Below are positions 709 through 62,486 of a DNA stretch of 64,000 nt, in pieces. The translations under genes were made by a program, and so were the position numbers. Source of the stretch: a virus; the IMG/VR virus record IMGVR_UViG_3300023242_000006, positions 5,476-69,475 of that record. The stretch is one strand, 5' to 3'. Positions within the stretch are counted from its first letter, which is position 1; the number at the start of each line of letters is the position of its first letter. The notes beneath the pieces are model-generated. The model saw only the letters and a program-made list of their open reading frames with translations. It had not been told where the DNA came from and made no database searches.

Positions 709-891
709 TTATTCTTTTATATTTGGTATTGAATCACTTACTGAATCATATACTGAATCCCTTACTGAATACCTTACTGAAACCCATACTGAAGCCCTTA
801 CAGAACCATGTACTGAATTATTTACTGAATTACTTACTGAATACCTTACTGAATCCTTTACTTTATCTTTTATTGATTTACCTATTATCAT
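709..891 (-). CDS. Repeat-array mini-protein paralog
   Basis: Begins MIIGKSIKDKVKDSVRYSV and ends IPNIKE. Confidence 0.5.
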   Translation of the reverse strand: MIIGKSIKDKVKDSVRYSVSNSVNNSVHGSVRASVWVSVRYSVRDSVYDSVSDSIPNIKE

Positions 892-1227
892 AGTTTTATT
901 CTTTTATTTTTGGTACTGAATCACCTACTGAACCCCATACTGAATCACTTACTGAAACCCATACTGAATCCCATACTGAATTATATACTGAATTACTTAC
1001 TGAATTATATACTGAATTACTTATTGAACTGTTTACTTTATCTTTTATCGATTTACCTAGCTTCATTGTTTTATTATTTTATATTTGGTACTGAATTCCT
1101 TACTGATTTCAGTACTGCATCACTTACTGAATACCATACTAAATTCCTTACTAAATTCCTTACTGAATTCCAGACTGAATCCCTTACTGAATTATATAGT
1201 GAATCCCTTACTTTATTTTTTATCGAT

Positions 1228-1515
1228 TTACCTAGTTTCATTGTTTATTTTTGACATTAAATCCCTTACTGAATTATATACTGAATCCCATACTGAATTC
1301 CTTACTTTATCACTTACTGAATTACTTACTGATTTAATCACTGAATCCCTTAATGAATACCTTACTGAACCCCTTACTGAATACCTTACTGAATACCTTA
1401 CTGAATACCATACTGAATCACTTACAGAACCATGTACTGAATTATTTACTGAATTACTTACTGAATACCTTACTGAATCCTTTACTTTATCTTTTATTGA
1501 TTTACCTATTATCAT
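1228..1515 (-). CDS. Repeat-array mini-protein paralog
   Basis: Begins MIIGKSIKDKVKDSV. It is longer because it has more 12-nt repeats. Confidence 0.5.
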   Translation of the reverse strand: MIIGKSIKDKVKDSVRYSVSNSVNNSVHGSVSDSVWYSVRYSVRYSVRGSVRYSLRDSVIKSVSNSVSDKVRNSVWDSVYNSVRDLMSKINNETR

Positions 1516-1730
1516 AGTTTTATATTTGGCGTTGAATTCCTTACTGATTTCATTATTAAATGATTCACTAAATGGTTTACCGAATAGATTATTGAATTAC
1601 TTACTGAATCTCTTACTGAATTCCTTACTGAATTCCTTACTGAATCCCTTACTGAATTCCTTACTGAATTCCTTACTGAACCCCTTATTGAACCCCTTAC
1701 TTTATCTTTTATTGGTTTACCTAGTTTCAT
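1512..1730 (-). CDS. Repeat-array mini-protein paralog
   Basis: Begins MKLGKPIKDKVRGS, with (SVRN)n repeats. Confidence 0.5.
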   Translation of the reverse strand: MKLGKPIKDKVRGSIRGSVRNSVRNSVRDSVRNSVRNSVRDSVSNSIIYSVNHLVNHLIMKSVRNSTPNIKL

Positions 1731-1766
1731 TGTTTATTTTTGGCATTAAATCCGTTACTGAATCCC

Positions 1767-1979
1767 TTACTGAATCCCTTCTGAATTACTTACTGAACAC
1801 CATACTGAATTACTTACTGAACTCCATACTGAATCACTTACTAAATCACGTACTGAATCCCATACTGAATTACTTACAGAATCATATACTGAATCATTTA
1901 CTTTATTACTTACTGAATACCTTGCTGAACCAAATACTGAATCCCTTACTTTATCTTTTATTGATTTACCTACTATCAT
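1767..1979 (-). CDS. Repeat-array mini-protein paralog
   Basis: Begins MIVGKSIKDKVRDSV. Confidence 0.5.
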   Translation of the reverse strand: MIVGKSIKDKVRDSVFGSARYSVSNKVNDSVYDSVSNSVWDSVRDLVSDSVWSSVSNSVWCSVSNSEGIQ

Positions 1980-1983
1980 AGTT

Positions 1984-2178
1984 TTATTCTTTTATTTTTG
2001 GTATTGAATTACTTACTGAACGACTTACTGAATTACTTACTGGAGTCCATACTGAATTCCTTACTGAATTCCTTACTGGAGTCCATACTGAATTCCTTAC
2101 TGAATACCATACTGAATCACTTACTGAATCTCTTACTGAACCCCTTACTTTATCTTTTATTGATTTACCTAGTATCAT
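1984..2178 (-). CDS. Repeat-array mini-protein paralog
   Basis: Begins MILGKSIKDKVRGSV and ends IPKIKE. Confidence 0.5.
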   Translation of the reverse strand: MILGKSIKDKVRGSVRDSVSDSVWYSVRNSVWTPVRNSVRNSVWTPVSNSVSRSVSNSIPKIKE

Positions 2179-2187
2179 TGTTTTAAT

Positions 2188-2232
2188 AAAAAAGTGCAGA
2201 AGGTTATTATTTTTCCCTCTGCACCTAATTTA
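2188..2232 (-). terminator. Rho-independent terminator (stem GGTGCAGAGGG/CCTTCTGCAC followed by a T-run on the minus strand)
   Basis: The inverted repeat gtgcagaagg...ccctctgcac reads on the minus strand as a hairpin followed by TTTTTTATT. It lies directly downstream of gene 2234..2479. Confidence 0.6.
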
Positions 2233-2233
2233 A

Positions 2234-2479
2234 TTAATCTTTTGACTTTTCGTAAACTGCTTTCAAAGGATTGTAAACAACTTGTGTTGTGATTAAACAA
2301 CTTTTCTTTTGTTCTAAAGTTGTGTGATTTTCTGTTGTTAAAACAGACTCACCCTCAACTAAGAACGTTTCATTTACTGCATCAATATCTACTACTTTTT
2401 TAGCGTTTTTGATGAAGTGACCACTTGTACTACTTGGTGCTACATTTACACCCACATTTAATTTTTCCATACTACTCAT
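2234..2479 (-). CDS. Hypothetical protein (unique insert inside the repeat array)
   Basis: Non-repetitive 81-aa ORF between array units, with its own terminator. Confidence 0.5.
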   Translation of the reverse strand: MSSMEKLNVGVNVAPSSTSGHFIKNAKKVVDIDAVNETFLVEGESVLTTENHTTLEQKKSCLITTQVVYNPLKAVYEKSKD

Positions 2480-2762
2480 ATTTATTGTTTAAAATTTTAC
2501 TGAATTACTTATTTTATTTTTAGTATTGAATTACTTACTGAATCCCTTACTTTATCTTTTATTTGTTTACCTAGTTTCATTGTTTATTTACCTAGTATCA
2601 TTATTTTATTTTTGGTATTGAATCATGTACTGAATCATATACTAAATCCCTTACTGAATCACTTACTGAACCCCATACTGAATCATATACTGAATCACTT
2701 ACTGAATTATATACTGAATCCCATACTGAATTACTTACTTTATCTTTTATCGATTTACCGAT
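2480..2762. repeat. Degenerate distal units of the same CTTACTGAAT array
   Basis: Junction motifs recur near 2560, 2590 and 2745 without an intact mini-gene ORF. Confidence 0.7.
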
Positions 2763-2763
2763 A

Positions 2764-3915
2764 TTAAAATTCATAAGTCATTAATTTGAAGTAATCGTTA
2801 CCCGATAAACTAGAGTAACGTTGAAGTTCATCATTACTAAATTCACCATTTTCTAATTTATAGGTAATATCATCATCAAATATAGTTGAAAATTTCTCAC
2901 CTTGTCTACTAATACTAACAATATTATTTTTTAAAATAGTAGGTACTCTGTATAAACTAGCGATAGCATCTTTAGCGGAGTCATAACTTGGCTCAACACC
3001 TAAAAAAAACATTCTATCTGTTGATGGGCAATAACACCTTACATATGCAATATTTACGTCATTTATTTGACCCTTAAATAGTGTGTAAACACCAATTCTG
3101 TTAGACCTAGTTGTACCTTCCAAATATTCATTTTTAGTATCATTCACAAATGAATCAACCTGTTTTAGATTATCTCGCATGAAGTCAAAAACAGCTTCTG
3201 TGCCGTCTCTACTTTCAATGTAAAGTAAAATCATTGACTTGGTTTCTTCGTTCTCTTCCTTAATAAAATCACTAAATGTATACTTTCTATTTTTCAACTT
3301 TAAAAATAAATCAGCATCAACATTTAAACCATTGATAAAATAGCAACCAGTACCATCATTAAATTCAATCGCAAAATCTTCTGTGTTGTGAGGCAATAAA
3401 TTTTCAGAAAGAATGTATTTAGGTGGTTGTACAGCGAAAACAACATTTTCAAATTCAAACGTTTCAAAAACATTTGACTCAATTAATGATTGGTACATAT
3501 TGAACTTTTCATCATTTAACACACCAATCTGTGTGAAATAATCATAAAACGAAATCCAACCAAAATTTGACCACCCAATGTATGAACTTTTCAGCTCTTT
3601 GTTTTCATCCATTTTTTTTAAAAAATCGGATTTTAATTTACTATTTTTATATTTTTCAAAAATAGTTGGGTATTCTGATACATCCATATTAAAATCCTTA
3701 AACATAGTTATTTTAATAATAGCATCAATTATCGAATCACAATAGATAACTTGTGGATTAGGTAAACTAACAAGGTTATTATATAACCAACTTATACCTG
3801 TTTCAAATTTTGATTTGTCAATACCCATTGAGCAATCATTGTAGGCTTTATTTATCCATTTGTCTCTTACTACCAATGTTAACGCCTCTTCTTGTTTTGT
3901 TAATTCTTCTTTCAT
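2764..3915 (-). CDS. Hypothetical protein (383 aa)
   Basis: Long ORF with no recognisable motif. Confidence 0.55.
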   Translation of the reverse strand: MKEELTKQEEALTLVVRDKWINKAYNDCSMGIDKSKFETGISWLYNNLVSLPNPQVIYCDSIIDAIIKITMFKDFNMDVSEYPTIFEKYKNSKLKSDFLKKMDENKELKSSYIGWSNFGWISFYDYFTQIGVLNDEKFNMYQSLIESNVFETFEFENVVFAVQPPKYILSENLLPHNTEDFAIEFNDGTGCYFINGLNVDADLFLKLKNRKYTFSDFIKEENEETKSMILLYIESRDGTEAVFDFMRDNLKQVDSFVNDTKNEYLEGTTRSNRIGVYTLFKGQINDVNIAYVRCYCPSTDRMFFLGVEPSYDSAKDAIASLYRVPTILKNNIVSISRQGEKFSTIFDDDITYKLENGEFSNDELQRYSSLSGNDYFKLMTYEF

Positions 3916-5056: not shown

Positions 5057-5440
5057 ATTGTTTTTAATTTAGGTTCATTTGTCAATTTCTTTTTCGAAAT
5101 ACTTTTGCATGATGTATGCAAGTAATGTACTTTGTATAATAATTTCTGGATATGACCAGTGTTCAAGGATAAGCGTAAGCCCTATCGTGATGAATAGGAA
5201 CAATATTATAAATAAGCCAAATGTTTTCATAAGTTAGTTTTTCTTTCGTGTTCCAATACTTTTATATGTCTTTTTAGTGCGTTAATCTCGAAGTCTTTTG
5301 CATTATCAGTTGTTGCTTCATTAAATACGGCTCTGAACGTTGCGTACAGTCTTCTGTGTGATATTTTGAACCGTGCCAAGTCCCAATCAATCATACGGTT
5401 CTTGGCATGTTTGTTTAGTAATTCAGCCAGTTTGTCCATA

Positions 5441-5671
5441 TTATTTTGTGTTGCATTTACAGTGTCCCGCATGTGTCATTGAAATTCCATCTCTAACTTT
5501 GGAATAGATATAAGTATGACCTTTGTAGTCAAACTCTTGTATGTCTTCAGCATGTGAAAAAGCACCATTGCTAATTCTTACAGTACCTTTTGTTGGCGTT
5601 TTTTGTTCTACATGAGTTGTTGTTTCACCACACCCAGTTAACCCTAATAGAATGAACAGAACCCAAACCAA
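5441..5671 (-). CDS. Putative lipoprotein
   Basis: Signal peptide with lipobox LGLTGC. Confidence 0.45.
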   Translation of the reverse strand: MVWVLFILLGLTGCGETTTHVEQKTPTKGTVRISNGAFSHAEDIQEFDYKGHTYIYSKVRDGISMTHAGHCKCNTK

Positions 5672-5688
5672 TGATAATTTTTCTTTAA

Positions 5689-6129
5689 TTATAATAAAAT
5701 GTTTGTTGATGTTGTACTCTTTTCATTGTACTCACTTACCGTATAATTAAACATTACTTCGTGAACTTTTATCACCTTTGATGTATCTTGTTTGATTACG
5801 GTATGTTGGAAACGTTCGTAGAACTTCACGTCTTCTGCTTCAAACTCGTGGATGAACCAACCATGTTTTTGCAATATTATAATGTCGTCTTTGGTAAACC
5901 AAAAGAACAAGTTATCTAGTGTTTCTACTGCTGATAACCAACTTGCTATTTCTTCGTCAAAATCCATAGCTAAATTTGAGTTAGCACAAAAACTAAACTC
6001 ATTATGAATAAGTCCAGTGAATTCACCATTGAATGCGTACCAAAGACCTTGTAGTGTATCTTTGTGGCATACTCTGAAATATGTTTGTTTACAGCTCATT
6101 TTCTTTTTCGTATAGGTGCCTTCCAACAC
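5689..6129 (-). CDS. Hypothetical protein
   Basis: ORF of 146 aa. Confidence 0.5.
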   Translation of the reverse strand: MLEGTYTKKKMSCKQTYFRVCHKDTLQGLWYAFNGEFTGLIHNEFSFCANSNLAMDFDEEIASWLSAVETLDNLFFWFTKDDIIILQKHGWFIHEFEAEDVKFYERFQHTVIKQDTSKVIKVHEVMFNYTVSEYNEKSTTSTNILL

Positions 6130-6269
6130 ATTTAGTTTCTTCTTTACAATCCCAAAGCATACCTCTTTTTTCTGGTGGTATCATATGGCAATTGTGTGGT
6201 TTGTTATGGTTCTTAGAATGTTCAATGATTCTATCGTTAAAATGGTTTCTAATAACCCATGGACATTCT

Positions 6270-6617
6270 TTACAAGGTTTCGCCATGTTTTTCTCCTTCT
6301 ACTTGTTTTTTGTTCTTGTTGTGGTACGCATCGATTTCGTCTTGCGTTGCCAAACGGTATTCAACACCATACAAGTCCAATTCTTGGTGGTCACAATGCC
6401 AGTCACAAGCAACGTGTGTTGCACCATGCGAACGCATTTCTGTTAACTTGTTGATTAGGTTTTCTATGTTAACCAGACCCGCATCTGAAAATAAGGTTTC
6501 ACCCAATTCGGTGTAGTCTTCATGTGTATCATAGTCAAAACCTAGTTCTTCAAATGGACGAGAATCCAATGAAATTTCTTGAATGTTTTTCTGGTGTAAG
6601 AATAATACGTTTTCCAT
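6270..6617 (-). CDS. Hypothetical acidic protein
   Basis: ORF of 115 aa. The promoter motif lies 17 nt upstream at 6635-6644. Confidence 0.5.
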   Translation of the reverse strand: MENVLFLHQKNIQEISLDSRPFEELGFDYDTHEDYTELGETLFSDAGLVNIENLINKLTEMRSHGATHVACDWHCDHQELDLYGVEYRLATQDEIDAYHNKNKKQVEGEKHGETL

Positions 6618-6634
6618 GTTTTACTTATTTAGAA

Positions 6635-6690
6635 TACAAAGGTATGAAATAAAAATGACACTACCAAATGATAGTGTCACTTTTTTATTA
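6635..6690 (-). promoter_or_regulatory. Terminator-promoter cassette, copy 1: TACAAAGGTA promoter element next to the palindrome TGACACTAccaaatgaTAGTGTCA flanked by A/T runs
   Basis: Direct reading. Near-identical cassettes occur at 13732-13790 and 21155-21210. Confidence 0.6.
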
Positions 6691-6695
6691 AAAAA

Positions 6696-7289
6696 TTATT
6701 TTAATTTAGCTTTTTTACTCTCATCAATCATTTTATCCAACATATCTAACCCTTCACCTATGTTTTTCAACTTATCAACACGGAAATCTGATAACTCCAA
6801 TCGTTTAAATGGTAAAATGAACTCTTTAACCAAATCATTGTGCTTGTCGTGTCTTCCCCAATCTTTCACGTAGCCATCGTACTTACCAGTAGTTTCTACG
6901 TGGTCTAGTGTATCTTTGCAGAATGTGTTAGCTTCTTTGTATTTGTGGTCGTAACCACCAACAAAACGTTCAGCCAATTCAAGACTAGACATATTGCTTC
7001 TGATATCTAACCCACATGAAATATTTTCAATAGCATTCAAATGCAAACAAATAATCAATCGATAGTCATAAGGTAAACTATCTTTAACAAGGATTTCTTT
7101 GATTTCTCTTTCAATCTCGTTTACACGTTGGATAAAGGCAGTAGCATTTTTCTTACTCAAACACCATACGTATTTATGGTAATGTGATGGAACATAGTCC
7201 AACCCAGTAACATAATCAATTTGGAAATACTTTCCTTTTTTTGATGCTTTAAATGATGTTAGCATAGTTTTTTTTATTTGATGAAACAA
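6696..7289 (-). CDS. Hypothetical protein (possible HD-type phosphohydrolase, weak)
   Basis: His/Asp-rich segments (HYHKY, RHDKHND). Motif assignment is uncertain. Confidence 0.35.
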   Translation of the reverse strand: MFHQIKKTMLTSFKASKKGKYFQIDYVTGLDYVPSHYHKYVWCLSKKNATAFIQRVNEIEREIKEILVKDSLPYDYRLIICLHLNAIENISCGLDIRSNMSSLELAERFVGGYDHKYKEANTFCKDTLDHVETTGKYDGYVKDWGRHDKHNDLVKEFILPFKRLELSDFRVDKLKNIGEGLDMLDKMIDESKKAKLK

Positions 7290-31159: not shown

Positions 31160-31318
31160 ATGAAAAAAGACAAATTATCACCAAAAGAGAGAAAACAAAC
31201 CATAAGTATCCAGATTCCTAATGAATTAATAATTCATTTAGATGTAATTAATAATAAGAGTAAATTCTTCGAATGGTTATTAATTGAACATTTTAACACT
31301 TTAAAAAATGGAAAATAA
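31160..31318 (+). CDS. Ribbon-helix-helix-like small protein; overlaps the start of the downstream endonuclease gene
   Basis: ..KQTISIQIPNELIIHLD.. Its stop overlaps the ATG at 31308. Confidence 0.4.
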   Translation: MKKDKLSPKERKQTISIQIPNELIIHLDVINNKSKFFEWLLIEHFNTLKNGK

Positions 31319-32258
31319 AACTGAAAATTTTATTTCAAAAGCTAAATTAATACATGGTGATAAATATGATTATTCAAAAGTTAACTATATTAATAAAAGA
31401 ACTAACGTTAAAATAATTTGTTCTGAACATGGTGTTTTTGAACAATTAGTACATAACCATTTAAAAGGTAATGGTTGTATTAAATGTTCTGGAAAAGGTT
31501 TAACTAATGAAGAATTTATTAATAAATGTAATATAGTTCATAAAAATAAATTTAATTATTCATTGGTAGATTATAAAAATTGTTATGAAAAAATTAAAAT
31601 AATTTGCCCAATACATGATAAATTTGAACAAACACCAAGTTCTCATATTAGTGGTGTTGGTTGTTGGAAGTGTTTTAATGAGGATAGAACCACATCAAAT
31701 AATGAGTTCATATTAAAAGCCGAAAAAGTTCATAGCGATAAATATAATTATTCTAAAATTATTTATTTAAATAGTAAAGTTAATATCACAATTATTTGTC
31801 CAATACATGGTGACTTTGAACAAACACCTAATATGCATTTAAAAGGTTGTGGTTGCCGTAAATGTGGTTATATAACGGTGTCTAAAAAAGCAATTAATAA
31901 TTCACATAGTTTTTCACTATCAAGTTGGAAAAATATTATATCTAAAAACATAAAGGCTAAACCAATGTTATATATTATTAAATGTTATAATGATACTGAA
32001 GAATTCATTAAAATAGGTATAACAATAAACAACTTAAAAGGAAGATACCCTAGTAATAAACATATGCCTTATAAATATGATATAATATTAACACATGAAG
32101 CTGAACCAGAATTAGTGTTTAACATAGAAAAAGCGTTACACAGGTATTTTAAAAAAATTAAATACACCCCGACTATAAAATTCCATGGTATGGGTGAGTG
32201 TTATTATATAAAAGATAAACCAGAAATTTTAAACTATTGTAATAAACAATTAAATTAA
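31308..32258 (+). CDS. Putative homing endonuclease: three zinc-ribbon repeats plus a C-terminal T5orf172 (GIY-YIG-like) domain
   Basis: The repeat [10 protein letters not shown]..IICxxHGxFEQxPxxHLKGxGCxKC occurs three times. C-terminus [18 protein letters not shown].......YDIIL.HEA....[11 protein letters not shown]. It sits on the plus strand, opposite to all its neighbours. Confidence 0.6.
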
Positions 32259-35123: not shown

Positions 35124-35225
35124 TGGTACATCGTATAGGAATCGAACCTATGTTACCGCAAGCGATTGGTACTTAATCTTCCGATGTGCTCTCATTTCGG
35201 CATTCTACCATTAAACTAACGATAT
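35124..35225 (-). tRNA. tRNA-like element A (encodes CCA; good T-arm; about 98 nt if the distal 5' acceptor strand is used, or a 60-nt minimal form)
   Basis: 3' end ..ATAGGTTCGATTCCTAT-ACGATGT-ACCA. Complementary 5' strands are ACATCGG at 35181-35187 or ATATCGT at 35219-35225. Confidence 0.45.
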
Positions 35226-35408: not shown

Positions 35409-35505
35409 ACTATCACTATGTCGCTCGGCAAAGTTAAACGTGATAGAAAGGATTATAACCGTCTGAAAGTTTGCCGACCTTCATGTTGCTATTCCCCAAT
35501 TTTGT

Positions 35506-35603
35506 GCGAGAGGGTGGACTCGAACCACCGACACCCAGTCCCTAGTTGTTCCCTTGTACTTCGGGCTAAAGACCTTAGCGTTTACCACTTCGCCACTCTC
35601 GCA
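35506..35603 (-). tRNA. tRNA-like element C (98 nt): perfect 7-bp acceptor stem GCGAGAG/CTCTCGC, 3-bp D-stem, good T-arm, but no canonical anticodon stem
   Basis: GCGAGAG-TG-GCGAAGTGGTAAACGC-...48 nt...-GGTGGTTCGAGTCCACC-CTCTCGC-A. Confidence 0.45.
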
Positions 35604-49569: not shown

Positions 49570-50457
49570 TTAGCACAATTTGTCACTAATTTTTTCATTA
49601 TATCTAATAATAATTAAATTAATATTTTTGCTTTTACAATAATCTTTTTTAATTTTATCGTTAATTTGTTGTTGTTTAAATTTTATTATTCCACCAAAAT
49701 AATTAACTGGTTTGTAATGTTGAATACCGTTGAATTCAATACATATATTATAATCTGGTAAATAAAAATCAAATGGTAATAAATTAATATTTTTACAATC
49801 AGGAAATTTATATTGTCGTAAATATTTTATTTTTTTATTTTCTAATATATCTTTAATTTCAATTTCACCTTTTGATTCATTACATAAAGGACAACCATGT
49901 TTTCTGTTGATATGATGGTCTGGAGATTGTTCAAACTCACCATGCTCTGGACATATTATTTTAACCTTAATTTTATTATTTCTATAATTAACTTTTGAAT
50001 AATCATATTTATTATTATGTATTTTATCACCCTCTTCTATAAATGTTTCAATATTTTTATTATTATAAGTACAGTAAGTACAACCATGACCCTTTAAATG
50101 ATTACTTGGTGTTTGCTTGAATTCACCGTGGATTGAACAAATTATCTTTATTTCATTATGTGAACTGATATAATTAATATTTTTATAATCGAATTTATTA
50201 CCATGTATTTTAATCGCATCAAAAATAAATTTCTCGTTATTTTTAGTTAATTTATTTTTCATCTCTTCTCTTCCACATAATAAACAGCCTTTACCTTGTA
50301 TATGTGATTTTGGAGTCTGTTTAAATTCTCCATGTATCGGACAAATTATAACAACTTTTTGTGTTTGATTAATATAATCGACTAAACTATATTCATATTT
50401 ATTTGAATGTTTATTATTAGCTTTAATTTTAAAATTCTCTGTATTTGATGTACTCAT
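49570..50457 (-). CDS. Putative homing endonuclease: three zinc-ribbon repeats plus a C-terminal PD-(D/E)XK (Vsr/DUF559-like) nuclease domain
   Basis: Same KYDYS..IICPIHGEF.Q.P..H..G.GC..C repeats as 31308..32258. C-terminus FDFYLPDYNICIEFNGIQHY. Confidence 0.6.
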   Translation of the reverse strand: MSTSNTENFKIKANNKHSNKYEYSLVDYINQTQKVVIICPIHGEFKQTPKSHIQGKGCLLCGREEMKNKLTKNNEKFIFDAIKIHGNKFDYKNINYISSHNEIKIICSIHGEFKQTPSNHLKGHGCTYCTYNNKNIETFIEEGDKIHNNKYDYSKVNYRNNKIKVKIICPEHGEFEQSPDHHINRKHGCPLCNESKGEIEIKDILENKKIKYLRQYKFPDCKNINLLPFDFYLPDYNICIEFNGIQHYKPVNYFGGIIKFKQQQINDKIKKDYCKSKNINLIIIRYNEKISDKLC

Positions 50458-57960: not shown

Positions 57961-58416
57961 TTACTCTGTAGGTTTATACCTTACAATAGTAACACATTCT
58001 CCTCTAAAAATTTCATCTATCATAGGTAAAATTATTTTTTCATCACCCCCAGCAAGCCCACAACCAATAAGTGGCATACCAAAAAGTAAACCAGTAAATT
58101 TATTTTTCATTTCTCTTAACGCAGAACGTAAAGCATCATAATCTAAATCCATTTGACCATTTCGTCTTCCAGTATAGTCATATTGACCATACAAATTAAC
58201 AATTATAGGTTTTGTGTTTTCGGTATAGGTAATTGTACCTAATTTATCTCTATCACCTTTTATTGTTTCACAATCAGCTTCATAAGCTTCTGGAAATTTA
58301 CTTTTAATTTGTGGGGCTATACCAGCACCCATAGTACAAAAACAGTTACAGCAATGAGCTATAACATCAAATAATTCGGCATCTCTTACTAAGTCACCAT
58401 CAATGTATTTTATCAT
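57961..58416 (-). CDS. Macro domain protein (ADP-ribose / O-acetyl-ADP-ribose binding or hydrolase)
   Basis: DVIAHCCNCFCTMGAGIAPQI and IGCGLAGGD. Confidence 0.7.
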   Translation of the reverse strand: MIKYIDGDLVRDAELFDVIAHCCNCFCTMGAGIAPQIKSKFPEAYEADCETIKGDRDKLGTITYTENTKPIIVNLYGQYDYTGRRNGQMDLDYDALRSALREMKNKFTGLLFGMPLIGCGLAGGDEKIILPMIDEIFRGECVTIVRYKPTE

Positions 58417-58421
58417 AATTT

Positions 58422-58955
58422 TTATTGTTTTAAAGTTTCTCTTACTCGCATAATAGCTTCACCTAACCAGTTTTTACCTTGCCATTTGCTCTTATCTTCA
58501 ATATTTCGGTGTTCAACACCCATTCCAATCCCCCAGATTTTATCGTAAGGGCTTGCTTCAACAATTTCTCTATCTTCAGTTGCTAACAATGATGTTTTGA
58601 AACTTATATTCTGTGTAAACTTGGCCAAGTTACCTTGATAAACAAATTCTCTACATACTCCATTCCATCTATTTGTATCGAAATTTTTAACACTACGACC
58701 CAAAGCTTTTTGTTCTTTTGGGTTTGTAGTATTCATAATAGTTTCATATACTTCCATATCTTTGAAATATAAAGCTTTTTGGGCCATCATGTATTGTTCA
58801 CAACTAGTGTAAGTGATTCCAGCAATGACAAACTTTGATGGATGCCATTGACTATAAATCCCATTCCAAAAGAATACAAACTCGTCTGTTATTGTAACGT
58901 CTTTTGTTCCCATAATTAAACTTTTGCTCGTTCTCTCACTTCTTCGAATGTCCAT
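58422..58955 (-). CDS. NADAR (YbiA/DUF1768) domain protein
   Basis: FFW...SQW.PS.F.I.G..YTSCEQYMMAQKALYF.D......I.....P.EQKALGR.V.NFD...W......V...GN.AKF.QN......LL.T....IVEASPYDKIWGIG. Confidence 0.7.
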   Translation of the reverse strand: MDIRRSERTSKSLIMGTKDVTITDEFVFFWNGIYSQWHPSKFVIAGITYTSCEQYMMAQKALYFKDMEVYETIMNTTNPKEQKALGRSVKNFDTNRWNGVCREFVYQGNLAKFTQNISFKTSLLATEDREIVEASPYDKIWGIGMGVEHRNIEDKSKWQGKNWLGEAIMRVRETLKQ

Positions 58956-59937
58956 TCTTTAGTGATTATACCGTTTCTGAACACTTCTACCAACTCATCT
59001 GTAACATCGTTGAACTCAGAATCCATTGAAGTAACTGTTCTAAACGTACCATCGTCATTCTTAACCAATTTAAGTAACCCTTGTTTTGATTTCTTGAATG
59101 ATTTTGTGATGTTACCATTAGCATCCATCTCAGTTGGAGATTTGATGATATTCTTTTCTTCACCATTGACAATAGCATAACATGCTTTGGTTGCAAAGTT
59201 TTGCGTATCACGGTTGATATCGGCTTGTAATAATTTGCCACCCATACCTAAAGCTAAGTTTTCTGGTGATATTTTTTGTTCCTCTAACAATGCATAGATT
59301 TCTTTGATTGAATCTAGATTAACACCATCACCTTGAATCACACGAACTTGTGGTGGTAACACTTTATAACCCTTATCGTTTACTGTGTAACCGAATTTGT
59401 CGAATAATATAGTGAAAATTTCTTTCAATGTCATTAACACGTCACCAGAATCTGGACGGATAACTAGTTGATTTCCTGGTTCTGATGGGCGAGATAGTAC
59501 TAAGTCTCTCAATTCAGTTCCCCAATACTCAGAACATGCACGAAAGATATTGTATGAATCAGATACACACGCAACTAACCCAGTAGGGAATGTTGTAAGT
59601 ACTCGTTTCATCATTTCCAATTCACCTTCTTCACCTTTAAGTGTCATGATAGAGTGTTCAGTTGCTGGGATAGATAACCCATAAACCGTTTCTGTATTGT
59701 AGTAATCTCTGATGTATTTAGATGCCATGATTGTGTCAGACCCTCTAAAGTTTACCAAGTGAGCAGAGCCACCGATACCAGCTGATTGTACAGACGATAC
59801 ACCACGGAAACCGAAGTCATTCAACACGTAATCAACCAGAAACTCTCTTAACCCAGTATCATATGATGTGTTTTTTTGAAAACTACTATCTACTATTTTA
59901 CGAACTTCTCTCGAAAGTGTAGCAACCGTAATCGGGT
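58916..59937 (-). CDS. nadV: Nicotinamide phosphoribosyltransferase NadV/NAMPT, exon 2
   Basis: ...YPITVATLSREVRKI...VLNDFGFRGVSSVQSAGIGGSAHLVNFRGSDT... The frame is open upstream of the track ATG and reads back to a splice-like boundary. Confidence 0.7.
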
Positions 59938-60856
59938 CGTGATGTTCGTATAGGTTCGTTAATCCCTATACCGTTCTCTTATGAACTGCTACATTTTTCA
60001 ATGTAGACCAGACTATATCAACATCTTATAAATAAGATGGTATCCATTTCCACTCACTTGAGTGTACGTCTTTCGACTAGTCGTTGAACTTTTTTAATCT
60101 TTATTTTGATAAGTATAAATTCTAGTTATGTGAGAAATAAACTCTTCTGTCGTCATGGTACTTTTTGAATTATTACAAAACTTACAACAACTAACACAAT
60201 TATCAACAGAATAACCAATAGAGTTATTTACTCTATCAACACCATTAACTCTAAATGGAGAAGTATCCATTTTTTTTCGTTTAGTGCCTTTCCATCCCAT
60301 ATGTGGTTCTAAACCACAATAATGACAATTACCATCTAGTAATTTATAACATTCCTCAGTAGTTAACTTAAAAAAGTAATTTCTTCTTGTTGCTGCTTTT
60401 AAATAATTTCTAAAAATTTCATGTTTAAGACCTTCAAAATTTGGTTTTGATTGCCTTTCAACTATTTTTTCTTTCATTAAACAACCACATGATGCGTGTC
60501 TACCGTTTTTTAAAAGATTACTTCTAGCTATTGTGGTATTACCACAATCACATTTACAAAGGTAACCTTTTTCTCTACTGTGATGCTCAATAACTGTTAA
60601 CCTATTGAACTTTTTACCTATCATTTTCTCTTTTGCTTTCATATGTTACAACATTAATTATAATAATAAATATATAACTATTTCACAAAAGACATTAAAA
60701 ATTAAACTTAGCTGCTGATTTTCCAATCTCTTACCTTTTCAAACATTCACGATTGATGTTACCATCTGCGTTGTAGTGTTAAGAGCTCTAAGGACGTTCC
60801 AGCAATTAGAATACTTTCGATATGGTGTCACCACCATAAAGGGCTATATTAATCTA
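59938..60856 (-). mobile_element. Group I-like intron (about 919 nt) interrupting nadV, carrying an HNH endonuclease ORF
   Basis: On the RNA strand exon 1 ends ..GUAUGGU and the intron ends ..CAUCACG (terminal G) before ACCCGAUU. Splicing restores VWY-PITV, which is conserved in NAMPT. Confidence 0.65.
60094..60642 (-). CDS. Intron-encoded HNH endonuclease
   Basis: C..C pairs and C-terminal GVDRVNNSIGYSVDNCVSCCKFCNNSK. Confidence 0.7.
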   Translation of the reverse strand: MKAKEKMIGKKFNRLTVIEHHSREKGYLCKCDCGNTTIARSNLLKNGRHASCGCLMKEKIVERQSKPNFEGLKHEIFRNYLKAATRRNYFFKLTTEECYKLLDGNCHYCGLEPHMGWKGTKRKKMDTSPFRVNGVDRVNNSIGYSVDNCVSCCKFCNNSKSTMTTEEFISHITRIYTYQNKD

Positions 60857-61394
60857 ACCATACTTGCAACAAGATAGTTTCTAAAAAGTTAGTTAACCAT
60901 GCACAGTTCTCATCTAAAGATTCGATAACGAACAAAACATTTTTGGTTCCAACTACATTTCCTTCTGGAACTGCTTTGATGCTGATAGGTAATTTACCAT
61001 CATACATCTCGATAATATAATCGAATTTTGTTCTATCGAATACATCGTCACGACCAAACACACCGTGCTTTGTACCTAAATATTCAAATGCTTCATCAAC
61101 CTCTTCTTTCGTAATGGCAACACCTTCTAAGTATTGTTTTAAAAAGATTTGTAACCCGTAGAATACTGTCTCAGAGAATTTACCACCTCTTGATTCCAAG
61201 TAAGATACCATCTTAGTCATTTCACTACCATAGAATCTGTGATGTGAATATTTGTAAGCATCTGAACACAAAATCAAGTTGTTTGGTTTTGTTAACGCTT
61301 TACTGAGATATTTTTGAATACCTTCAATAGATACCCAATCTTTGTTTTCTATCGCAGTTTTTAATTTTTCAGCTATTTTTTTTTGTAAACTCAT
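60857..61394 (-). CDS. nadV: Nicotinamide phosphoribosyltransferase NadV/NAMPT, exon 1
   Basis: ..LCSDAYKYSHHRFYG... is the NAMPT N-terminus. The track ORF ends LQVWLD* just inside the intron. Confidence 0.7.
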
Positions 61395-61415: not shown

Positions 61416-62414
61416 TTATTCACCAGTGTAAGTTACATTATCAATTCTTTCAACTAATCTTTCACCAATATTTGGTATAAGTTTTTCATCGTAAACTTTG
61501 TTAACCAAAGCCAACATCATTTCACGGTGTTCTGGCATTACTTTGGTTCTAACCGTATCAAAGTTACTGAACTCTCTAATTGGAATCCATTTAACATCTG
61601 CGATATCATCACTAGCTTTTGCGTAACCCATATTTTTGCGACCCAAGAATAACGTAGTCATTATCCCAGATTCTTCTTTGGCATATCTCCAATCTTTTAC
61701 TCTATGACTTAAGATATATTTTAAGTCGCTGATAACACAATTACCACCAGTTTCTTCACGAAACTCTCTCAAAGCTGCTTTTTCATAGCTTTCATCTGTC
61801 GGGTCAACAAATCCACCAACGAATCTCCAATACTTCTCGTTAGGTTTTCTACCCATAAGAATCTCACCTTCATCGTTGTATGCACAGATATCAACTGTTG
61901 GATAAGAGACTGGTCTTTGATTAAATGCTGAGTAGATAACACCAGACCTAAAATCAGTAGAGTCAAGAGTTTCTTTAGCGACATCTGCTCTAATGTTTGT
62001 AGCGTTATGGTTAAAGCTAGCTTCTAATTCAATAACTTGAAATTTGCCTTTGTAATGAGGAATGAACGAATCACGGCTACCATAAATAACTGTTTTCTTT
62101 TCACCAAACGGCATAGAAATAGCTGAATCAATTTCTGAACTCCATTTTTCATCGTATCTTTGGTCCATTACTGGTAAAATCATTAAACTAGGAAACGATT
62201 TTTGAATCATAGCTTTACGACTAGCAAAATCCAAAGGGTTTTTCTTGGTGTTTTGTACTCTAGACACACCTAGGATAAGTACAGTTTTTTTATGATTTGA
62301 AAGGACGTGGTTAATCAAGTCAATATGTCCTTTATGTAATCGGTTTGTTTGAAATCGCCCTATAACAACCCCAACTTCAAAATCCGTTGGTTCTATGTTT
62401 TTTTTAATGTCCAT
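61416..62414 (-). CDS. Bifunctional NMN adenylyltransferase / Nudix hydrolase (NatV/NadM-Nudix-like)
   Basis: N-terminus GRFQ..HKGH (nucleotidyltransferase H-x-G-H). C-terminal Nudix box GGFVDPTDESYEKAALREFREETGG. Start trimmed to MDIKK, downstream of the promoter motif at 62438. Confidence 0.75.
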   Translation of the reverse strand: MDIKKNIEPTDFEVGVVIGRFQTNRLHKGHIDLINHVLSNHKKTVLILGVSRVQNTKKNPLDFASRKAMIQKSFPSLMILPVMDQRYDEKWSSEIDSAISMPFGEKKTVIYGSRDSFIPHYKGKFQVIELEASFNHNATNIRADVAKETLDSTDFRSGVIYSAFNQRPVSYPTVDICAYNDEGEILMGRKPNEKYWRFVGGFVDPTDESYEKAALREFREETGGNCVISDLKYILSHRVKDWRYAKEESGIMTTLFLGRKNMGYAKASDDIADVKWIPIREFSNFDTVRTKVMPEHREMMLALVNKVYDEKLIPNIGERLVERIDNVTYTGE

Positions 62415-62486
62415 ATTTGATTTTATTTTTATAGTACAAAGGTACAAAAAAAAATGCAGATAAAACAAATTATCTAAAAGTTTTTT

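Follow-up and report, generated by a model that had tools for sequence, protein, structure and literature searches.

A predicted IA-type group I intron with a PacI-like endonuclease gene in the nadV gene of an uncultured phage

The interrupted nadV gene and its surroundings

The stretch of DNA analysed here, called the window, comprises 64,000 nucleotides of the IMG/VR virus record IMGVR_UViG_3300023242_000006. Its minus strand carries a nadV gene in two parts, separated by an insert that itself contains an open reading frame (Table 1). Upstream of nadV lies a gene for a bifunctional protein with NMN adenylyltransferase-like and Nudix parts; genes for a NADAR-domain and a Macro-domain protein are located downstream. 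Judging from the sequences, nadV and the NMNAT-like gene would together constitute an NAD+ pathway of the NARP2 type. NARP2, which consists of Nampt and Nmnat, counters NAD+-depleting defences (bioRxiv 10.1101/2024.02.11.579819).

Table 1. Features of the nadV locus, in window coordinates and in the order in which they are transcribed from the minus strand.
Feature	Position	Strand	Remarks
Upstream neighbour, bifunctional NMN adenylyltransferase-like + Nudix protein	61416..62468	-	NatV-like
nadV exon 1	60857..61394	-	538 nt; codons 1-179 and base 1 of codon 180; 3' end ...GUAUGGU
Insert, predicted group I intron of IA type	59938..60856	-	919 nt; first base U, last base G
P1	60842..60859	-	exon GGU and intron UA (60859-60855) pair with guide UAGCC (60846-60842); U.G wobble at the last exon base, 60857
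P2 hairpin	60821..60838	-	UAUGGUG-GUGA-CACCAUA; 7 bp, GNRA loop
P3 5' strand and P4-P5-P5a-P5b domain	60712..60814	-	P3 5' strand 60814-60809, domain 60807-60712; nhmmer with family profile, E 8.3e-24
P6 5' strand	60701..60706	-	UUUAAU, pairs with AUUAAA at 60098-60093
Endonuclease leader	60643..60691	-	conserved, CTTTTGTGAAATAGTTATATATTTAT...; shared with free-standing gene copies
Endonuclease ORF	60094..60642	-	182 aa, 549 nt; PacI-like His-Me finger; stop codon inside the P6 3' strand
Ribozyme 3' half	59938..60098	-	P6 3' strand, J6/7, P7, P7.1, P7.2, P3 3' strand, P8, P7 3' strand, P9, P9.1, P9.2, terminal G at 59938
nadV exon 2	58916..59937	-	1022 nt including stop; 5' start AC CCG AUU ACG (rest of the YPIT codons)
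Downstream neighbour, NADAR-domain protein	58422-58955	-	
Downstream neighbour, Macro-domain protein	57961-58416	-	

The open reading frames listed for this strand include one of 181 aa (61394..60849) that ends in ...LLQVWLD-stop, one of 182 aa (60642..60094) and a long frame reaching its stop at 58916. The first of these is the frame of exon 1, which runs into a stop two codons inside the insert (VW-LD-stop). When 919 nt are excised, exon 1 and exon 2 add up to 1560 nt, i.e. 519 codons and a stop, and the junction reads ...CAA GTA TGG T|AC CCG ATT ACG GTT GCT, translated as ...QVWYPITVA. The insertion is in codon 180, within the universally conserved VWYPITVA motif. An initial annotation had claimed that the two halves are colinear and in phase once the 919 nt are removed, and that their joining restores this motif; a direct reading of the junction and the resulting 519-aa NAMPT confirm both.

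The joined product is recognized by the Pfam models NAMPT_N (E 4e-27) and NAPRTase (E 2.1e-41). Alignment with intronless NAMPT homologues, which had been suggested as a check, gave a consistent picture. Eight uninterrupted proteins of 519–527 aa (P0001–P0008) are 95–96% identical to the joined sequence over 100% of its length, and the alignment with human NAMPT (6tac; E 1.9e-122, residues 37–518) is gapless at the junction, the block WYPITVAT being identical in the two proteins.

The insert starts with T (U in the transcript) following the exon-terminal T, and its final base is G. The boundaries had been said to follow group I rules, with U before the 5' splice site and G as the last intron base, and they do so exactly: the exon base 60857 forms the U.G pair and G stands at 59938. 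These boundaries cannot be shifted in either direction, because T, with which the intron begins, is not the same base as the G in front of exon 2 and because intronless nadV relatives read TGGT|AYCC at this site. The ligated exons are expected to read CAAGUAUGGU|ACCCGAUUACGG. The exact 22-mer spanning the spliced junction, as would be found in cDNA or in an identical intronless allele, had no match among metagenome contigs.

Three contigs, each from a different sample assembled on its own (two from ENA, one from JGI), agree at 100% identity over a region of 5.1–5.4 kb, and the arrangement of nadV and insert is hence not an assembly artefact. The source is uncultured, and the coverage of one related contig described below (L093) is very low, which would be in keeping with an insert joined into nadV by the metagenome assembler. 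Against such a chimera stand the three identical assemblies and two divergent variants with the same junctions, and we regard its probability as negligible.

Gene callers annotate the interrupted gene as two products of 181 and 303 aa. The same would be seen if an endonuclease cassette had split nadV into two separately translated polypeptides, which assemble again as proteins while the RNA stays unspliced; for genes in pieces of this kind, phage Aeh1 with mobE inserted in its nrdA is a precedent. However, the break lies inside a codon (phase 1) and exon 2 has no start at the junction, its first in-frame start, GTG at 59827, dropping 37 residues that include YPITVA.

Ribozyme core, family and covariation

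All helices from P1 to P9.2 could be placed in the insert, and the invariant sequences of J6/7, P7 and J8/7 are intact. J6/7 reads GUUCAAC, and P7 is formed by GACUA (60082–60078) and UAGUC (60015–60011). In P3, GUAUUC pairs with GGAUAC, the 3' strand being located at 60045–60040; P4 consists of UGCUGG and UCAGCA, P5b has a GUAA loop and P9 a GAAA loop. The conserved-core stretches GUUCAACGACUA and GAUAUAGUC agree with the RF00028 consensus. Between P7 and the 3' strand of P3 (60077–60051) there are two hairpins, P7.1 (GUC-GAAA-GAC) and P7.2 (CACUC-AAGU-GAGUG), and the presence of both places the intron in subgroup IA. A closer assignment as IA2-like is suggested, leaning on a resemblance to introns of the Twort/T4 type. 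The P1 guide UAGCC, with the same pairing, is also found in four related introns (in L022, L037, L093 and L096, see below), and the terminal G (59938) is conserved in three of these (L096, L022 and L037). Inspection by eye gives at most a weak pairing of the guide region with exon 2 (P10).

A search of the whole window with Rfam at gathering thresholds returned tRNAs only and no intron match. In a permissive scan with RF00028, for which the gathering score is 50 bits, P4–P6 was matched at 60804..60672 (13.4 bits, E 2) and the part from J6/7 to P9 at 60227..59989 (30.6 bits, E 1.4e-5), with the right strand and order for both. The intron of the window stays below 50 bits because 602 nt of leader and ORF in the P6 loop split the core. 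The RF00028 search proposed in the initial annotation thus recovered the two halves of the core in order, each at a score short of the threshold. Family members devoid of an ORF score 53.7–105.7 bits with the same model and pass that threshold.

The intron belongs to a family with other members in viral contigs and isolated phages. A 16-mer from P5 has matches in 52 viral contigs, of which about 40 show 70–82% identity across the P3–P6 domain. Among isolated phages in GenBank, the same domain is present in Twort nrdE, in AR9/PBS1, in the Pseudomonas KIL phages (RNR beta) and in several Staphylococcus phages. Over P4–P5b, 19 members were compared: 96.8% of the cells are paired, as against 25–42% in slid controls, and compensatory changes occur in 12 of the 25 pairs. 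The covariation score is 0.392 versus 0.03–0.08 for the slid controls, and none of 500 shuffles attained 0.392. The compensatory signal is located in P5, P5a, P5b and P3.

An alignment of the whole core with MAFFT misaligned P7.2, P3' and P8; P3, P6, P8 and P9 were instead anchored on invariant motifs. The 5' strand of P3 was defined as the 6 nt one base upstream of AATTGCTGG, and its partner as the six bases adjoining the P8 hairpin on its 5' side. So defined, P3 is paired at 6 of 6 positions in 21 of 24 family members, with about 15 different sequence pairs, and its 3' strand is always found directly 5' of P8. The hairpins P6, P7.1/P7.2, P8 and P9 are present throughout the family, the sequences of P6, P8 and P9 differing among its members.

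When the locus was compared with GenBank phages by megablast, only about 80–150 nt of the intron core were matched, in each case by introns of other phages, and the phage of the window is therefore absent from that collection. The best matching introns, those of Vibrio phage D181 and Klebsiella phage phiKp_21, were considered as nadV introns and rejected, the host gene being a different one in either case. A profile search found no second intron of the same family within the window. A 29-mer covering P1–P2 was not found in any viral contig and had a single metagenome match, L096.

Taking the full set of helices together with the homology to ORF-less members, the covariation and a reading frame that is restored exactly on excision, we identify the insert as a group I intron; the group I-like intron claimed for nadV in the initial annotation is upheld by the same four lines of evidence. 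Two other types of element were considered and rejected, an intein because of the in-frame stops in the insert and the ribozyme core, and a group II intron for want of a reverse transcriptase and of an Rfam match.

The core also bears on the splitting of nadV into two reassembling polypeptides by an endonuclease cassette. In its nearest homologues the endonuclease is encoded by a free-standing gene, as such an origin would lead one to expect. However, the 370 nt around the ORF make up a complete, covarying group I core, which a simple cassette would not bring along, and the free-standing copies have no such core. With the position of the break inside a codon, this renders an unspliced gene in pieces very improbable, and a group I intron removed from the RNA is preferred.

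The intron-borne endonuclease, with predicted splicing and homing

The ORF of the insert is located in the P6 loop of the intron and its product shows the motif CxYCG...NGVDR...GY...N...CCxxCNxxK. Neither Pfam, the HNH model included, nor NCBIfam gave a match to this protein. In PHROGs, families 1035 and 374 were hit, with the annotations ‘endonuclease VII’ (1.6e-18) and ‘HNH endonuclease’ (7.7e-15). Compared with solved structures, the single sequence matched PacI (E 0.0016), and a profile of 32 sequences matched PacI at E 8.9e-8 and the HNH endonuclease 4h9d at E 1.6e-4. Invariant among the 32 homologues are C29, C31, C33, G34, C52 and C54, which form an N-terminal Cys module, as well as C106, Y108, C109, G134, D136, R137, N148, C153, C156, N157 and K160; G143 and Y144 are nearly so.

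Two CxxC zinc sites and the metal-binding Asn of a beta-beta-alpha-metal enzyme are present (C106, C109, C153, C156, N148, N157). The position of the catalytic His of canonical HNH enzymes is taken by D136-R137, invariant in the family, and since D-R replaces the catalytic His in PacI as well, the protein is filed as PacI-like and not as a canonical HNH endonuclease. PacI has been assigned to a His-Me finger group of its own, mostly viral (group 20), in which a loop Tyr replaces the role of the His (PMC5714182). By analogy, Y144 may take over this role in the intron endonuclease. The initial annotation had spoken of an HNH ORF typical of a mobile intron; it had the superfamily right, and an endonuclease gene does lie in the P6 loop, whereas the canonical HNH motif has to give way to a PacI-like one. 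Because every family-invariant residue is retained in the ORF of the window, the enzyme is probably active, as judged by analogy with PacI.

The leader in front of the ORF was also looked at as a possible recurring phage promoter; its motif occurs once in the window. A TTGTGA...TATAAT pair has a spacer of 20 nt, and no promoter is claimed.

We consider it highly probable that the 919-nt insert is an IA-type group I intron in codon 180 of nadV, which is spliced to yield full-length NAMPT and homes by means of the endonuclease encoded in its P6 loop. A ribosome translating exon 1 would stop two codons into the intron. The transcript is predicted to fold from P1 to P9.2, upon which an external guanosine held in P7 would attack in P1, directly 3' of the U that forms the U.G wobble (60857). 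The 3'-OH of exon 1 thus set free would attack after the terminal G (59938), and ligation of the exons would give the mRNA for a 519-aa NAMPT. The intron is, on this evidence, very probably self-splicing. As for mobility, we infer DNA cleavage and homing on the model of other phage introns: during mixed infection the PacI-like endonuclease would cut intronless nadV near TGGT|AYCC, and repair from intron-bearing genomes would copy the intron into the cleaved gene.

A decayed intron, i.e. a non-splicing ribozyme that has turned nadV into a pseudogene in this phage, was weighed against this. Fixed homing elements are expected to degenerate, splicing of this particular intron is a prediction, and the P10 pairing is weak. 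On the other hand, none of the core helices and invariant core sequences is damaged, no stop or frameshift occurs in the exons, whose joint product is as close to intact homologues as stated above, the endonuclease has lost no invariant residue, and the sequence recurs unchanged in three samples. Decay is therefore held to be improbable, and we retain a functional, spliced intron as the favoured interpretation.

Site occupancy, module history and known systems

nadV at 57–89% identity is encoded by 27 viral contigs (L001–L027). None of these 27 loci has an insert at codon 180, where the target is conserved, and the site is likewise empty in P0001–P0008; setting aside the loci with an intron at codon 145 or a divergent nadV leaves 23. 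The codon-180 intron is present in the phage of the window, in L093 and in L096. The latter, from activated sludge, has 73% identity and the same splice sites, its P9 and P9.2 being altered by compensatory changes. An ORF in a peripheral loop is thus combined with presence/absence polymorphism at codon 180, that is with occupied and empty sites, as in mobile introns.

A second insertion site exists in the same gene. In L022 and L024, 970 nt are inserted between codons 145 and 146, 102 nt upstream of the codon-180 site and following AVPEG, a further motif that human NAMPT also has. The inserted sequence is another group I intron, homologous to that of the window and 78–80% identical to it in the P3–P6 domain; its P2, at the corresponding place, likewise has 7 bp but another sequence, and its loop is GUAA. 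Its P6 loop carries a gene for a PacI-like endonuclease of 219 aa, 34% identical to the one described above, the frame of which runs through P7, P7.1, P7.2 and P3' into P8. In L037 this intron occupies the homologous position, in a nadV too divergent for tblastn, so that the codon-145 intron is present in two very divergent nadV lineages. Both sites are occupied in L093, a short contig of very low coverage, where a codon-145 intron is followed by a 102-nt exon and then by a codon-180 intron with 86.7% nucleotide identity to that of the window and the same splice sites.

Except for that of L093, the closest homologues of the endonuclease (57–80% identical) are free-standing genes. In L082, L085, L088 and L094 they directly follow the stop of a nadV gene of 543–550 aa and are in turn followed by NADAR or Macro genes. 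The nadV products beside them are only 24–27% identical to that of the window, and at the codon-180 site this divergent lineage reads LLQVW|STTERV, sharing with the window no more than the 5' half. Free-standing and intronic cassettes share about 80% nucleotide identity, which reaches 50–64 nt upstream of the ATG and ends where the ribozyme begins; the free-standing copies are without a group I core. The window intron is a mosaic, since its ribozyme is nearest to that of the codon-145 nadV intron and its endonuclease nearest to the free-standing, nadV-linked genes. In Twort, the endonuclease carried at this position by a related ribozyme is an unrelated one. This pattern of cassettes fits the models of ‘endonuclease-gene invasion’ and ‘collaborative homing’ (PMC3984707).

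Tentatively, and with somewhat less than even confidence, we propose that the nadV locus of these large uncultured phages preserves several stages in the making of mobile introns: one ribozyme scaffold at two sites with two PacI-like endonucleases, a free-standing cassette, and genes with zero, one or both introns. Should the free-standing enzyme cleave at codon 180, the locus would exemplify in nature how an endonuclease gene invades an existing intron, with both states extant. In that case an intron would also have moved within the gene, to a second position where GGU|... again allows the P1 match.

Endonuclease-bearing group I introns in conserved phage metabolic genes are textbook knowledge. 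The initial annotation was aware of no such intron in nadV, and our own searches of the full-text literature, incomplete in coverage, likewise found no report of a group I intron in nadV/NAMPT. nadV appears to be a new host gene for group I introns and would join the list of conserved phage metabolic genes that they have colonised. Production of NAMPT would then depend on RNA splicing. Surveys of phage NAD+ reconstitution genes would miss or miscount this nadV because gene callers split its ORF. Added interest comes from the locus as a compact natural series for the combination of endonuclease genes with ribozymes, with empty, two-site, double-intron and free-standing forms. As far as sequence can tell, PacI-type His-Me finger nucleases lacking the catalytic His would here be used as intron-borne endonucleases.

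Phage introns of the IA2 type are known from td, nrdB and nrdD (sunY) of T4 and from the DNA polymerase gene of SPO1. Self-splicing has been demonstrated for the Twort and T4 introns and is predicted for that of nadV. With the introns of Twort, T4 and SPO1 the nadV intron shares an endonuclease ORF directly after the P4–P6 domain, the presence of P7.1 and P7.2, and a host gene of phage nucleotide or cofactor metabolism that is invaded in a highly conserved motif; it differs in that this gene is nadV and not nrd, td or pol. The Twort nrdE intron (GenBank AF485080), which lies in a CDS that the annotation joins from three pieces, has a ribozyme of the same family, with a P3–P6 domain 74% identical and a match lying just upstream of I-TwoI. 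I-TwoI itself is unrelated to the nadV-intron endonuclease, and no similarity between the two was found by BLASTP.

A further comparison is with the codon-145 intron in the same gene. The guide UAGCC, the pairing with GGU and UA and a PacI-like endonuclease in the P6 loop are common to both introns, whereas the site 102 nt upstream, the 219-aa endonuclease and the sequence of P2 set the codon-145 intron apart.

Free-standing homing endonucleases at intron insertion sites are represented by F-CphI with the cyanophage psbA intron and by T4 MobE with nrdB (PMC3984707, PMC2790892). As there, an endonuclease gene tied to one target gene is found inside and outside an intron. At nadV, in contrast, the same cassette with its leader is seen in both states at about 80% nucleotide identity, and the free-standing copies adjoin a nadV lineage that is distant (24–27% identity) and differs on the 3' side of the codon-180 site.

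With PacI (PDB 3ldy/3m7k), finally, the intron endonuclease has in common the motif CxYCG...GVDR...GY...N...CxxCNxxKS, the lack of a catalytic His and the conserved loop Tyr. It differs from PacI by an additional CxCxCG...SCGC module at the N-terminus, of which longer relatives have more than one copy, and by its place in a mobile intron rather than in a restriction context.

Early stops and the flank of the insertion site

An in-frame stop lies zero to four codons past the 5' splice site in each nadV intron (window 60849-60856, with equivalents in the related contigs L022 and L093); in the window intron it is a TAA two codons past that site, and in L022 it follows immediately. Such an early stop would halt the ribosome before it reached the ribozyme. 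In exon 2 of the intron-bearing window allele the Pro182 codon is CCG (window 59928-59936; ACCCGATT), and it is CCA or CCT in 27 of 27 related viral loci and in the contig L096. The CCG adjoins the insertion site and is possibly a polymorphism due to co-conversion or one that gives immunity to cleavage.

Endonuclease-like and tRNA-like genes in the window

The profile of the nadV-intron family (group I introns sharing the P3-P6 domain) was searched against the whole window and gave no copy beyond the nadV intron; for this reason the two homing-endonuclease-like ORFs listed below are probably free-standing genes. In both tRNA-like genes about 25-28 surplus nt lie within the anticodon arm or the variable region, fewer than a group I intron would need. 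Gene 1 was not detected by ARAGORN, and gene 2 was assigned a 4-base anticodon by the same program.

Features of the window and of related contigs
Feature	Sequence	Position	Strand	Description
Homing-endonuclease-like ORF	window	31308-32258	+	One of pair with PHROG 681/559; Pfam T5orf172, DUF4379, DUF723
Homing-endonuclease-like ORF	window	49570-50457	-	One of pair with PHROG 681/559; Pfam T5orf172, DUF4379, DUF723
tRNA-like gene 1	window	35127-35225	-	99 nt; RF00005, 43.5 bits
tRNA-like gene 2	window	35504-35602	-	99 nt; RF00005, 41.8 bits
L022 region	IMGVR_UViG_3300037294_000399	5135-6788		nadV-adjoining ORF and nadV 3' fragment
L093	ENA ERZ15184899	1-1588		Coverage 0.28
L037 region	IMGVR_UViG_3300043436_004687	735-3337	-	nadV with codon-145 intron

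Introns and duplications in related nadV loci

The nadV lineage of L037 is only ~25% identical to that of the window and carries the codon-145 intron at the homologous REG|S position; this intron has therefore moved between highly divergent nadV genes. In L093 nadV holds both introns, separated by an exon of 102 nt. In its second intron the sequence diverges after P7.2, where a GIY-YIG-like ORF follows; this ORF contains an internal stop and may represent another endonuclease gene in that intron. Because its coverage is low, L093 is possibly a chimera.

Directly after nadV in L022 stands a free-standing endonuclease-like ORF of 303 aa (DUF723/zinc-ribbon), followed by a second copy of the nadV 3' portion (residues 423-519). 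This duplicate is 96% identical to window nadV, whereas the in-gene copy is 89% identical. The arrangement looks like the footprint of an endonuclease-driven replacement of the nadV 3' end.

Family introns on giant-virus MAG contigs

Two or three family introns lie inside a few kb in L032 and L071. Seven contigs labelled as giant-virus MAGs (L032, L041, L043, L060, L067, L070 and L078) bear introns of this family, with P4-P6 about 75-82% identical and P7.x/P8 greatly enlarged.
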